Assembly: GCA_030247515.1 (NCBI GenBank) | Contig: JAOTSA010000001.1 | Coordinates: 1,255-65,254 of the forward strand | DNA from: Sulfurimonas sp. | GTDB taxonomy: Bacteria > Campylobacterota > Campylobacteria > Campylobacterales > Sulfurimonadaceae | Direction: 5' to 3' | Length of the DNA: 64,000 nucleotides | Shown here: piece after piece, positions 10,141 to 13,306 of the stretch | How the letters are laid out: each line of letters opens with the position of its first letter | Position numbering within the stretch: the stretch's first letter is position 1 | The notes under the pieces: generated by a model | What the model was told of the DNA's origin: nothing | What the model saw: only the letters and a program-made list of their open reading frames with translations | The model's database searches: none | Translations under genes and position numbers: made by a program

Positions 10141-11811
10141 ATGCTTCAATTGATAGCGACACTGTTTTTCTCTTTTGTTCTATTTATAGGCTGTTCAAGT
10201 TCCAATAGCAGTGAGTCAAAAAGCGCATCTGTGCTTGGCGATATCAAAGATAAAATCAGTTGGTATGCCGACATGACGGATGATGTGCTTGTTATGGATC
10301 TCTCTGTTCCTGTTCCGAATGATTATCTATGCGCTCCATACACCAACCCGACAGGTGTGCTTAGAGCTTGTACACTTGAAGATGTCTTGAACGATACAGA
10401 TTCAAATGATGCGTATGAGCCTTTGTTGCACATAAAGATGCAGGCTGATGATTTTATCCCATCAAGCGAGCAGATGAATGCTTCCTTTGAGCAAAAAGGA
10501 AAGACAACAAGAAATGCTGATCAAAAATCATTTAGAGTGAAGTTGGATTCTACCGATGTGCTTTACAAAAAAGAGAGAACCTTTCAGCTTAACAAACACC
10601 CTTACGATAATTCAAGAGTTCGTAACAAGCTTGCTTTTGACCTTTTTAGAAATATACCGAACTTTACAAGTTTAAAAACACAATTTGTCAATTTGCGCAT
10701 TAACGGTGTTGATTATGGTCTCTATACGCATATAGAAAAAATGGGAAAAGAGTTTTTGATTAACCGTGGATGGAATGAAGATGATAACCTTTACAAGGCG
10801 CAAAATTTTGCTTTTCGTATGGTGAACGAACTCAACCTTAACTCATCAGGAAAGCCTATTAATCCTGATGCTTTTGATTCTGTCATAGAAATTGAGCGAG
10901 GTAAAGATCATACTAAGCTTGTTGCTATGCTCAATGCCATTGACGCTGCACAGACAGATGCCGAATTTGAAGCTGTTTTTAACAGATATTTTAACAGAAA
11001 CAATTACATCACATGGATGGCTATCAACCTTGTCATGGCAAACAAAGATACTGTTTCACAGAACTTTTATCTCTTTAATCCCTTAAATAGTGATACATTC
11101 TACTTTATGCCTTGGGACTATGATGGTACAGGAAGAGCAACGGAGAAGTACGCAAAATGGGAGCTTGGGATTGCTACATGGTGGGGCATACCTCTGCATC
11201 AAAAATTCTTAAAGGTCAAAAAAAATAGGGATGATGTGGATGCGATGGTTACAACACTTAGAAATCAGTATGTAACTCCAGCGGCGATTCAGGCAAGACT
11301 TGATGTGTATGAGCCTTTGATTACACCTTATTTGTCAGTTGATCCTGATGCCAATGACCTCTCAACACGACAGTGGCGAACGGAGTTTGATATTTTGATA
11401 CCAAGACTGGATGAAAATATAGCAAACTATAGAGGCGAGATAGGCGTACCGATGCCGTTTTGGCAATCTTTTGAGTATAACGGCGGAGTGTTAAAACTCA
11501 TGTGGGATGAAGCAGTTGACTTTGAGGGCGATGAGATAATTTACGATGTTCAGTGTGCCGATAATGTTGATTTTAACAATAGTATCGTCAATGAAACTGG
11601 CTTAAGCGTTGCGGCAGGTGATTTAAACATTACATCATGGGGTGAGGTAAGTTACACAAAAACTGTGCCAATGTCCACTGGAGTGAGATATTATATGAAG
11701 ATAACTGCAAGAGAGAAAAATAACCCTGCACATTATCAGATAGCTTTTGACAAAGAAGTAGAGATTAATGATGTTACCTATTTTGGCTTACTGGAGTTTG
11801 CACTTGAATGA
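10141..11811 (+). CDS. CotH-family kinase lipoprotein with C-terminal FN3-like domain
   Basis: Lipobox FIGC. CotH motifs 'QKSFRVKL', 'LNKHPYDNSRVRNKLAFDLF', 'YGLYTHIEK', 'QNFYL', 'MPWDYD'. Confidence 0.85.
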   Translation: MLQLIATLFFSFVLFIGCSSSNSSESKSASVLGDIKDKISWYADMTDDVLVMDLSVPVPNDYLCAPYTNPTGVLRACTLEDVLNDTDSNDAYEPLLHIKMQADDFIPSSEQMNASFEQKGKTTRNADQKSFRVKLDSTDVLYKKERTFQLNKHPYDNSRVRNKLAFDLFRNIPNFTSLKTQFVNLRINGVDYGLYTHIEKMGKEFLINRGWNEDDNLYKAQNFAFRMVNELNLNSSGKPINPDAFDSVIEIERGKDHTKLVAMLNAIDAAQTDAEFEAVFNRYFNRNNYITWMAINLVMANKDTVSQNFYLFNPLNSDTFYFMPWDYDGTGRATEKYAKWELGIATWWGIPLHQKFLKVKKNRDDVDAMVTTLRNQYVTPAAIQARLDVYEPLITPYLSVDPDANDLSTRQWRTEFDILIPRLDENIANYRGEIGVPMPFWQSFEYNGGVLKLMWDEAVDFEGDEIIYDVQCADNVDFNNSIVNETGLSVAAGDLNITSWGEVSYTKTVPMSTGVRYYMKITAREKNNPAHYQIAFDKEVEINDVTYFGLLEFALE

Positions 11812-13306
11812 AGATTTTGATATTGTTGTTGTTGACGAAAACAAACAAAACAAACCAAAGAAACAAAAAAAGCCTAAACTCTCCAAGCTTGTAGGTACAT
11901 TTTTTAGAAATGCGCTTCGCTCCAATCTTGACTTAACGGCTTTGGCAGATACAAAAGCTGGCATACTTATCTCCATTAACGGCTTTATCCTTACTGTAGG
12001 TGTTACCGCATCTGGTTTCGTCGTCCATAGTGATGTTATGACATATGCTTTTATTTCGATTATATTAACCTCACTAGGTTCTATTATATTGGCTGTTTTG
12101 GCGGTCAAACCAAGAAGCAAAGAGAAGCTTGTTGCCCCAGATCAGCAAGAGGGGTACTCTAGTTTGCTCTACTATCAGGATATGGCAGATTTAGCACCTA
12201 GTGAGTATGTTGGAGAGATGAATGAGGTCTTATTTAGTACAAAAAAATCAACAAACGAGATGATAAAGCATCTTCATATACTAGGCTCGGAGATAAAAAA
12301 GAAATATTTTTGGCTTAAACAGGCATATACATTTTTCTCATTGGGTTTGGTTATCAGCACGTCACTGATTATTTATGCGTTAGTTTATGTTGAAGTTGAT
12401 GCGGCGCAGAAGAGTATAGCTGGCGGAGTAGTCTATAAGAAAGAGAAATTTTATAATATTTTTGAGCCATCAGGCGCAACAACAATGCCAGATGGAAAGA
12501 TTTTGATAGCTGAAGATGAAAGCGGTATCAATGCTTTAAAGATTGTAGAGATAGAGGGAGACAACAGTGTTGTTGAAGTAGGTGATTTGTATATGCCTAA
12601 AAAAATCAAAAAATTATTTAAAAAAGATATTGAAGATATAGAGGCGATAGCATCGGATGAAAACACTGTTTTTGCTATAACATCACACTCCTTGGGTAAA
12701 GATAACAAAGAGAAGAGTGAACGTGAAAAATTTATCATGTTTAGTTACAAAGATGGAGCGGTTGAAAATTTTTATACATATACTGATTTGAAAAAAGATT
12801 TGATTGCAGGTTTTCCAGAACTGTTTAGAAGTACTATTTTCACGTCAAGTGGTATGGATATAGAGGGTTTGTGTTTTGAGGATACCAACGGAACTCTGCT
12901 TGTAGGATTTAAAGCTCCGCTTATCGATGGAAAAGCGATGCTTATCGGGATAGAAAATCCAAAAGGAATCTTTTTGAATGGAGAGAAGCCCCACTTTTCC
13001 AAACCGATAATGCTTGATTTGCATGCAATGGGAATCAGAGATATCACATATGATGAGCATAAGGACGGTTACTGGATAATTGCTGGAGGAAGTAATGACA
13101 GAAACAATAACTTTCAACTATGGTTTTGGGATAAGAAAAATGCAAAAGTAACTGCAATCAAAAACCATCCAGAACTTGGTTTTGCGGAGGGAATAACTAT
13201 TATAAACAAAGATACAAATAAGCAATCTTTACTTATAATACAAGACGACGGCAGACGTCCAAATAAGCCTGCTGGTTACATGATTATCGAGAGGGATAGT
13301 TTATGA
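11804..13306 (+). CDS. Pycsar-effector-like (PycTM/DUF5706) 3-TM domain fused to a periplasmic DUF3616-like beta-propeller
   Basis: 'LADTKAGILISING', 'LAVKPR', 'SLLYYQD', 'KKKYFWLKQAY' (DUF5706 pattern). Propeller motifs 'EPSGA', 'DIEAI..AITSHS', 'DIEGL', 'GIRDI', 'AEGIT'. TTG start at 11804 with GGAG SD. Confidence 0.75.
   Translation: MNEDFDIVVVDENKQNKPKKQKKPKLSKLVGTFFRNALRSNLDLTALADTKAGILISINGFILTVGVTASGFVVHSDVMTYAFISIILTSLGSIILAVLAVKPRSKEKLVAPDQQEGYSSLLYYQDMADLAPSEYVGEMNEVLFSTKKSTNEMIKHLHILGSEIKKKYFWLKQAYTFFSLGLVISTSLIIYALVYVEVDAAQKSIAGGVVYKKEKFYNIFEPSGATTMPDGKILIAEDESGINALKIVEIEGDNSVVEVGDLYMPKKIKKLFKKDIEDIEAIASDENTVFAITSHSLGKDNKEKSEREKFIMFSYKDGAVENFYTYTDLKKDLIAGFPELFRSTIFTSSGMDIEGLCFEDTNGTLLVGFKAPLIDGKAMLIGIENPKGIFLNGEKPHFSKPIMLDLHAMGIRDITYDEHKDGYWIIAGGSNDRNNNFQLWFWDKKNAKVTAIKNHPELGFAEGITIINKDTNKQSLLIIQDDGRRPNKPAGYMIIERDSL

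Follow-up and report, generated by a model that had tools for sequence, protein, structure and literature searches.

A PycTM-like membrane domain fused to a DUF3616 propeller ahead of a Sulfurimonas pel locus: a candidate non-defence envelope module with ties to phosphate and polyphosphate genes

A 64,000-nucleotide (nt) stretch of a Sulfurimonas sp. genome (assembly GCA_030247515.1, contig JAOTSA010000001.1, positions 1,255 to 65,254 of the forward strand), analysed here as a whole and referred to as the window, carries at the head of a pel locus a gene that encodes a PycTM-like domain with three transmembrane (TM) segments fused to a DUF3616 beta-propeller. The window has a GC content of ~40% and the gene, called the fusion gene below, sits in one long plus-strand gene block:

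8662-9513 (+): NIT-domain protein, start of the gene block
9683..9934 (+): ComEA-like secreted helix-hairpin-helix (HHH) protein, 83 aa, first of the conserved block (HHH_3 PF12836, E=3.5e-17)
10132..11811 (+): CotH-family kinase-like lipoprotein (cotH), 559 aa, lipobox FIGC (CotH PF08757, E=1.3e-57; N-terminus read from sequence)
11768 or 11804..13306 (+): fusion gene, PycTM-like 3-TM domain plus DUF3616 propeller (open reading frame, Pfam, PADLOC, AlphaFold2)
13303..15264 (+): Porin_O_P outer-membrane barrel (aa 309-635; PF07396, E=1.7e-37) with an N-terminal SPOR-like domain and a K/E-rich spacer
15295..21502 (+): pelC-like, pelD, pelE, pelF and pelG (Pfam PelD_GGDEF, DUF3492+GT1 and PelG; synteny common to the relatives' loci L001 and L002)
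21480-24043 (+): split pelA-like copy in two pieces, 660 and 176 aa, no Pfam match
24027-28642 (+): pelB in two genes, a TPR gene and a SPOR-like/TPR/PelB-barrel gene (Pfam PelB C-terminal barrel)
25130-25720 (+): tandem SPOR-like copies of the PelB-like N-terminus (identity to the porin N-terminus)
28663-31410 (+): second pelA, 915 aa, GH114 (Pfam), end of the gene block

The core of a pel operon is recognisable by Pfam (PelD_GGDEF, a PelF-type glycosyltransferase with DUF3492 and GT1, PelG, the PelB C-terminal barrel and PelA GH114), and the two pelA copies together with the divided pelB possibly reflect duplication and decay within the locus. On these family assignments the fusion gene, which matches no core Pel family, is classed as an accessory insert ahead of pelCDEFG. 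The small HHH gene precedes cotH also in three of the relatives' loci that were fetched for comparison (L001, L002 and L004). The Cys-containing, SPOR-like N-terminus of the porin (aa 17-94; window 13351-13584) is 55% and 37% identical to the two tandem copies at the N-terminus of PelB, and the K/E-rich spacer that follows it, ~180 aa long, is the site of read length variants that skip 171-189 nt at 13836-14060.

The open reading frame (ORF) of the fusion gene, 11768..13306 (+), encodes 512 aa from its first ATG. An alternative in-frame TTG at 11804 is probably the true start, with ATG 11768 as the second candidate, because a GGAG lies 7 nt upstream of the TTG and the resulting product of 500 aa fits the length of the homologues (~490 aa). 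The cotH stop codon at 11809-11811 gives an overlap with the fusion gene of 8 nt from the TTG or 44 nt from the ATG, and the tetranucleotide ATGA at 13303-13306 combines the stop of the fusion gene with the ATG of the porin; an earlier interpretation made from the letters of the window (the sequence-only reading) had described the gene as translationally coupled to both neighbours, and these junctions bear it out. In RNA-type wastewater libraries, contigs extend over the whole gene and bridge its junctions on the cotH side and on the porin side, which is consistent with co-transcription, DNA carry-over being possible. Promoter and terminator scans returned site counts below, or not above, those of shuffled sequence and do not define the limits of the operon. 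Within the fusion gene the following segments can be delimited:

11840..11887 (+): Lys-rich cytoplasmic tail NKQNKPKKQKKPK, of variable length; a K/R-rich tail is seen family-wide
11888..12022 (+): amphipathic helix FFRNALRSNLDLTALADTK and TM1 AGILISINGFILTVGVTASGF, the best-conserved segment (pairwise identity)
12038..12106 (+): TM2 (AlphaFold2 helix 77-101, hydropathy)
12107..12319 (+): helical cytoplasmic TM2-TM3 loop with conserved LLYYQD and HLHILGxEIKKKY motifs (alignment, AlphaFold2)
12320..12397 (+): TM3 (membrane-spanning end of AlphaFold2 helix 146-201, hydropathy)
12437..13303 (+): predicted periplasmic DUF3616/phytase-like beta-propeller (PF12275, domain model, fold match)

Both halves of the protein are recognised by Pfam well above the family cut-offs, the N-terminal half as PycTM (PF18967, E=4.2e-16, 59.7 bits against a cut-off of 27.2) and the C-terminal half as DUF3616 (PF12275, E=1.2e-12, 48.4 bits against 20.6). 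The PADLOC model for PycTM (PDLC02364) matches at 6e-20 with model positions 18-153 of 160 aligned, and several of the CBASS '2TM effector' models in PADLOC match the protein as well. The homology to Pycsar-type TM effectors proposed by the sequence-only reading, which had recognised a 3-TM DUF5706/PycTM N-terminus and a DUF3616-like propeller, is therefore real. AlphaFold2 modelled the full protein (pLDDT 82) as an unstructured Lys-rich tail, helices at residues 30-72, 77-101 and 146-201, and a beta-propeller at residues 204-500 with pLDDT >90; a model of the propeller domain by itself reached pLDDT 90 and pTM 0.90. Lysine and arginine residues are concentrated in the tail before TM1 (10) and in the TM2-TM3 loop (11), the short TM1-TM2 loop having none, and stand-alone DUF3616 relatives bear signal peptides or lipoboxes. 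On account of this charge distribution and of the secreted relatives, the predicted topology has the N-terminus inside and the propeller in the periplasm, where the earlier reading had also placed it.

Conservation is concentrated in the membrane part of the protein. Sulfurimonas-type orthologues agree best in TM1, with a mean pairwise identity of 91%, followed by the amphipathic helix in front of it with 85% and by the propeller with 52%; across phyla the pre-TM1 helix and TM1 retain 51-53%, as against 35% for the propeller. An invariant stripe of small and polar residues, ISxNG...T...T/S...G, runs along TM1. The Lys-rich tail keeps its character across the family and not its sequence, and a variant with a 9-nt in-frame deletion at 11838 occurs in one RNA-type library (run X5). 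Because TM1 and the helix preceding it are the most conserved elements, the TM unit would appear to be no passive anchor and to have a sequence-specific job, such as the lining of a pore or the making of fixed contacts.

The invariant residues of the propeller are mostly acidic or arginine (E221, E237, D238, D278, E280, R307, E354, R370, R412, E462 and D481), a composition compatible with a metal- and phosphate-binding centre. Among 33 diverse relatives, DUF3616 is matched in 27, the Phytase-like family PF13449 is matched weakly in 13 (best 1e-6) and the SdiA-regulated family in one, and a sequence search of the PDB with the single protein and with a 33-member profile returned no meaningful relative. 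With the domain-only model, the best solved structure found by Foldseek is 3qqz, which represents the C-terminal domain of YjiK from E. coli (TM-scores 0.57/0.67), followed by a cyanobacterial 'putative hydrolase' (2qe8) and then by generic WD40/NHL propellers; the whole-protein model retrieved generic propellers only.

Full-length two-domain orthologues number more than 180 at 51-93% identity and, where named, belong to Sulfurimonas or Campylobacterota. A HMMER search over 1.84 billion representative sequences gave 2303 matches. Among them, full-length fusions at 27-44% identity make up dozens of independent clusters (defined at 50% identity), and each half also occurs by itself in many cases, as a DUF3616 protein or as a PycTM-like protein of 190-290 aa. 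In a scan of genomic loci, with one genome per GTDB species, the family was found at 440 loci in at least six phyla: Campylobacterota, Desulfobacterota, Thermoanaerobaculia (Acidobacteriota) and a few Actinomycetes; among Gammaproteobacteria Thiomicrorhabdus, Methylococcaceae, Thiotrichales including Thiomargarita, Chromatiales and Psychrobacter; among Alphaproteobacteria Paracoccus and Henriciella; and among Betaproteobacteria Neisseria, Lautropia and Rhodocyclaceae/Zoogloeaceae. No match to the family was found in 50,697 phage records, and 72,556 plasmids yielded only 2, both on megaplasmids. From these comparisons the family appears to be broad, old and vertically conserved, and not an orphaned defence gene. 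The idea of an orphan, defence-derived effector that had been co-opted for another purpose is accordingly given up, because the clade is large, vertically conserved and equipped with conserved partners of its own.

These partners were identified by calling and clustering ORFs in all fetched loci, with counts taken over 93 loci (tblastn) or over 105 same-strand operon partners (Pfam); the Pfam-annotated contexts comprise the loci of 13 relatives, ten of them stand-alone relatives (L084-L093) with precomputed contexts. Porin_O_P is the most conserved neighbour (17 of the 105 same-strand partners, 28 of the 93 loci), with matches in relatives up to E=3.7e-82, and DUF3616 is fused or adjacent in 82 of the 93 loci. 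The TM unit and the propeller are encoded by separate adjacent genes at L010, L013, L015, L017, L018 and L047, and again at L084-L087, L089-L091 and L093; the taxa with split genes are Thiotrichales, Thiomicrorhabdus, Desulforhopalus, Zoogloeaceae, Henriciella and many metagenomic contigs, and the separate propeller has its own signal peptide. Such fission and fusion signal a joint function of the two parts. At loci of Sulfurovum and Sulfurospirillum the propeller is missing: a PycTM-like gene on its own, with 50-57% identity to the N-terminal domain studied here, lies directly before the porin gene. In the window, the fusion itself and its ATGA overlap with the Porin_O_P gene assign the locus, as far as gene order can tell, to a putative DUF5706-DUF3616-porin module. 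The gene orders that connect this module to other functions are:

L084: PPK1 - PycTM - DUF3616 - Porin_O_P
L085: PHO4 - PPK1 - PycTM - DUF3616
L086 and L089: PPK1 - PycTM - DUF3616
L091: PHO4 - PycTM - DUF3616 ... Porin_O_P
L087: PycTM - Phytase-like/DUF3616 - Porin_O_P
L090: PycTM - DUF3616, with Porin_O_P 5 kb off
L093 (1-10318; an unrelated metagenomic lineage): PycTM - DUF3616 - alginate-export-type (AlgE-like) barrel, with a CotH gene on either side
L088 and L092: PycTM alone
L018 (Henriciella): PHO4 - PPK1 - PycTM - DUF3616 - porin

PPK1 thus lies immediately upstream at 5 distinct loci (L018, L027/L084, L085, L086 and L089) and the PHO4 phosphate transporter is found at 3 (L018, L085 and L091). 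CotH accompanies the module at about 6 loci, of the Sulfurimonas type and also in the distant L017, L043 and L093, the last with two copies; the lineages include Desulforhopalus. The pel genes adjoin it only in Sulfurimonas-type loci, namely the window and L001, L002 and L003 of the 93 fetched, L002 and L003 being near-duplicates. The view that the membrane gene is embedded in a biofilm operon consequently holds for its position beside pelCDEFG in the window and not for the family at large. Several candidate associations were discarded. A single 973-aa ORF in L018 that joins PPK1 to PycTM was considered as a Rosetta-stone fusion; 0 of 120 close relatives are fused, which makes a sequence error possible, and since all 120 are stand-alone the case is counted as adjacency only. 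PolX, HI0933-like, SulP, thioredoxin, M35 protease and CTP synthase genes are neighbours that are not conserved, and the BPD_transp_1 ABC permeases of Psychrobacter, considered as evidence for phosphate, look amino-acid-type and not Pst.

The operons with PPK1 and PHO4/Pit in other phyla are the reason to regard phosphate or polyphosphate (polyP) as the business of the module. On balance, with the scales tipped only slightly, we favour the interpretation that the fusion gene belongs to a non-defence envelope module tied to phosphate and polyP, which has been recruited together with CotH to Pel. Two properties of its associates are relevant: OprO is a pyro/polyphosphate-selective porin, and Pel is cationic and binds polyanions such as extracellular DNA. 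The parts of the module would be the 3-TM PycTM unit with its Lys-rich tail, the periplasmic DUF3616 propeller and a porin of the OprO/OprP family. The tail and the cytoplasmic loop may engage a polyanion (polyP, or pyrophosphate and inorganic phosphate, Pi) made at the cytoplasmic face, for which PPK1 is a candidate source because of the operon linkage. The periplasmic propeller would then bind or trim the polyanion and the OprO/P-type porin would move it over the outer membrane. In Sulfurimonas-type Campylobacterota, the module would have been placed behind the ComEA-like gene and the CotH lipoprotein gene at the head of the pel operon, where it could supply CotH, an extracytoplasmic kinase, with a phosphoryl donor, offer a polyanion to cationic Pel as a partner, or do both. 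For the membrane step, the precedents are PycTM and Cap14, on whose model the 3-TM units may assemble into an oligomeric conduit for anions: a PycTM effector forms pores (PMC11224242), and Cap14, from a related class of defence TM effectors, is a nucleotide-gated, chloride-selective anion channel (10.1101/2023.07.24.550367). That the unit acts as a channel, what it would carry and in which direction, and how it would be connected to CotH and Pel are all read here from gene association.

A more specific version of this proposal, which we put forward as a tentative possibility, is a polyP secretion route in which polyP made by PPK1 would pass through a DUF5706/PycTM-type channel to the DUF3616 propeller and on to an OprO-like porin or AlgE-like barrel, serving both as the phosphoryl donor of CotH and as an anionic cross-linker of Pel; the Pycsar pores would then be a weaponised offshoot of a housekeeping polyanion channel. 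Outward transport is rated somewhat more likely than inward because TM-porin pairs exist without a propeller, because an alginate-export-type barrel can replace the porin, because constraint is strongest on the TM unit, and because the Gram-positive analogue described below pairs CotH with a polymerase and not with a phosphatase.

Several observations weigh against the phosphate/polyP interpretation. The 64-kb window contains no ppk1 or PHO4 gene, so that the operon link to phosphate genes is absent from the Sulfurimonas locus itself. The PPK1 link consists of the 5 distinct loci, mostly of Alphaproteobacteria or of Acidobacteriota type and none from Campylobacterota, and the PPK1 'fusion' of L018 is probably an artefact. 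Most loci, for example those of Paracoccus and Neisseria, have no adjacent porin or PPK1. The propeller has no specific catalytic match, its modelled fold pointing to the uncharacterised YjiK, a 'putative hydrolase' and generic propellers, and the passage of a long polyanion through a channel of 3-TM subunits is hypothetical. The same gene set also fits import, that is, scavenging and storage, and the functional evidence is throughout guilt by association.

Import is the alternative that fares best, and we consider it unlikely. The porin would admit phosphate, polyP or organophosphate, the tethered phytase-like propeller would hydrolyse it, PHO4/Pit would import the Pi and PPK1 would store it, the adjacency to pel being incidental or regulatory. 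The identity of the partners (Porin_O_P, PHO4 and PPK1) speaks for such a pathway, as do the weak Phytase-like matches in the 13 relatives and the precedent of OprP and OprO, which are phosphate-starvation uptake porins in Pseudomonas. What it leaves unexplained is why the TM helices should be the most conserved part, why stand-alone PycTM-like genes are paired with porins in the absence of a propeller, why an alginate-export-type barrel occurs in L093, and why CotH and Pel recur as associates in a pattern that is mirrored by CotH and polyP polymerase in Gram-positive pel loci.

A second alternative, which we judge to be quite improbable, is the model of the sequence-only reading: the PycTM-like domain would be a cyclic-nucleotide receptor, with the cyclase encoded elsewhere or with the nucleotide as a second input beside PelD, and would either kill upon phage infection or gate the propeller or Pel export. 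The significant homology to the Pycsar and CBASS TM effectors and the conservation of the cytoplasmic TM2-TM3 loop are in line with a receptor. Its predicted partner is missing from the window, as the sequence-only reading had remarked: Pfam scans of window ORFs of at least 90 aa contain no Guanylate_cyc, SMODS or CD-NTase family (the RNase HI, RNase III, chorismate synthase, RecA, enolase and FtsB-like ORFs of the window were recognised by eye only), and tblastn with a class III cyclase gave no match in the window at E<=1. Nucleotide cyclases are likewise absent from all 13 Pfam-annotated loci of relatives (0/13), and tblastn across ~90 loci detected a single gene with a class III cyclase domain, at L009 (11913-12461, minus strand), convergent to a full-length homologue and ~0.9 kb downstream of it. 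A PADLOC scan of the 105 operon partners was uninformative for cyclases, its best 25 matches being filled by one Septu system, at L037. There, in a Sulfurovaceae metagenome-assembled genome (6571-8723), a Septu-like PtuA/PtuB pair lies directly downstream of a stand-alone PycTM-like gene and porin, probably a coincidental insertion of a defence island.

Relatives linked to cyclases do exist and, like the convergent gene at L009, count in favour of the receptor model. On the megaplasmid pFA2 of Fulvitalea axinellae (L094, 5335-8025), an HD::PycTM fusion of 406 aa, 28% identical, is followed by a membrane class III cyclase, possibly a Pycsar/Pucsar-like variant with a phosphohydrolase head. This pair serves as a positive control, showing that cyclase-linked relatives are detectable by the method used, and the cyclase-linked members appear to form a different branch. 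The distribution of the family also differs from that of a defence island: synteny is conserved in Sulfurimonas-type genomes and the neighbours at the 440 loci are housekeeping genes, so that conservation is vertical and not patchy, in keeping with the near absence from phages and plasmids (0/50,697 and 2/72,556). It is moreover hard to see how abortive infection would employ a suicide pore that carries a conserved periplasmic domain as a permanent fusion and whose gene is translationally coupled to that of a porin. With a cyclase at 0 of 13 annotated loci and one among ~90, the suggestion of an effector activated in trans that couples phage sensing to matrix production finds no support, and handling of phosphate or polyP for the Pel machinery is more likely than phage sensing. 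Since an adjacent cyclase and a defence-type distribution are both lacking, the protein should not be filed as a Pycsar effector; by analogy it may still act in a Pycsar-like manner, strictly as far as the formation of a pore in the membrane is concerned.

Finally, a dedicated Pel accessory, in which the propeller would bind, modify or guide Pel between the PelDEFG synthase and the outer membrane with the TM domain docked to the synthase, is highly improbable. In its favour, the position between cotH and pelC is kept in four Sulfurimonas-type loci, the SPOR-like module is common to the porin and PelB, and a DUF3616 protein (XAC2848/Bdp7) is listed among novel extracellular polysaccharide- and biofilm-associated genes of a Xanthomonas transposon screen (PMC3130047), against which stand the presence of pel genes at just 3 of the 93 fetched loci plus the window and the occurrence of the module without Pel in Sulfurovum, in Gamma-, Alpha- and Betaproteobacteria and in Acidobacteriota.

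The interpretation as a phosphate/polyP envelope module gains from a comparison with pel loci of Gram-positive bacteria. Streptococcal, clostridial and bifidobacterial pel loci contain contiguous genes for CotH, a polyphosphate polymerase, a DUF4956 membrane protein and DUF4832 (Whitfield et al., PMC7112168). S. intermedius produces less Pel and aggregates less when the CotH gene or the multi-TM gene is mutated, and a connection with phosphate metabolism is, as the authors noted, suggested by all three accessory genes (PMC12345266). The Campylobacterota locus would by analogy be an independent second case of CotH and a polyP-linked membrane module beside pel, because next to CotH comes a multi-TM protein with relatives encoded in PPK1 operons, and then a porin of a phosphate/polyP-selective family. 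Two further findings connect the module with the biofilm matrix: the SPOR-like domain that the porin of this genome has in common with PelB, and the listing of the DUF3616 protein XAC2848/Bdp7 in the Xanthomonas screen (PMC3130047). Common to both are CotH and a small multi-TM protein contiguous with pel, and a genomic tie to polyP synthesis; the membrane protein and polymerase are DUF4956 and a VTC-type enzyme in Gram-positives as against DUF5706/PycTM and, in other taxa only, PPK1 here, and the Gram-negative version is extended by a propeller in the periplasm and a porin in the outer membrane. Neither VTC nor DUF4956 families were detected when the window was scanned with Pfam, and the window has no polymerase, so that despite its CotH the locus does not belong to the Gram-positive set, which it resembles in function and context only.

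Comparison with other known systems shows similar mixtures of likeness and difference. With the Pycsar PycTM proteins (e.g. EcPycTM) and the CBASS 2TM effectors the fusion protein shares a homologous 3-TM unit of ~160 aa, which makes a role as pore or channel plausible by analogy, but it has no partner cyclase and is joined, by fusion or pairing, to a propeller in the periplasm and a porin in the outer membrane, and its family has PPK1, PHO4 and CotH as partners and resides outside defence islands, phages and ordinary plasmids. The downstream partner falls by family match into Porin_O_P together with Pseudomonas OprP and OprO, from which it differs by the additional SPOR-like domain and K/E-rich spacer, the SPOR-like part being common to PelB. 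E. coli YjiK (SdiA-regulated domain), the best solved fold neighbour of the propeller, is membrane-anchored and faces the periplasm; its sequence is ~10% identical to the propeller, and because YjiK has no known function no activity can be transferred from it. In eukaryotes, the VTC complex links the making of polyP to its translocation across a membrane, and the resemblance to it is one of concept alone, with no homology claimed: synthesis of polyP at the cytoplasmic face would be coupled to a channel of 3-TM subunits. Bacterial PPK1 differs in being encoded by a separate gene, its coupling to a channel being suggested by operon structure.

In the literature searched, DUF3616 is mentioned and DUF5706 is not, nor is the gene set that combines PPK1/PHO4 and a 3-TM protein with a propeller in the periplasm and a porin of the OprO/P type, and the searches found no described bacterial polyP exporter. 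By sequence, the fusion gene and its relatives appear to represent a housekeeping, periplasm-facing and porin-coupled branch of a family known only from defence, and there is a reasonable chance that this branch marks an undescribed envelope pathway. The database name 'Pycsar system effector family protein', which NCBI now propagates to close relatives, would seem to be misleading for a large non-defence branch. If the proposal is correct, it offers candidates for the passage of polyP or phosphate through the Gram-negative envelope in the context of polyP metabolism, and for the role of CotH and phosphate-related accessory genes in Pel loci, a matter raised explicitly by the Pel field for Gram-positives (PMC12345266, PMC7112168); a descent of pore-forming defence effectors from membrane proteins with housekeeping roles is a further matter on which it would have a bearing.

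Other features of the window are mentioned for completeness. Downstream of the pel locus, within 32039-44899, lie a GalE-type UDP-sugar 4-epimerase gene on the minus strand, which could be a source of UDP-GalNAc for Pel, and a type II secretion cluster (GspG, F, D secretin, E ATPase and pseudopilins). At the start of the window, positions 298-3774 encode a DUF748/AsmA-like protein of 1158 aa; AsmA-like proteins are implicated in lipid transport between membranes. Between the NIT-domain and ComEA-like genes, at 9541-9665, there is a palindrome of ~125 nt with perfect 20-nt outer arms, TAGACTTCTTGCATAACCTA, which occurs once within the window and gave no credible match in Rfam and tRNA scans. 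Its depth in RNA-type wastewater libraries reaches ~1100, compared with 5-60 for the flanking genes, and contigs swap its inner part; it looks like a dispersed repeat, of the kind of miniature inverted-repeat transposable elements or repetitive extragenic palindromes, or like a stable hairpin RNA.

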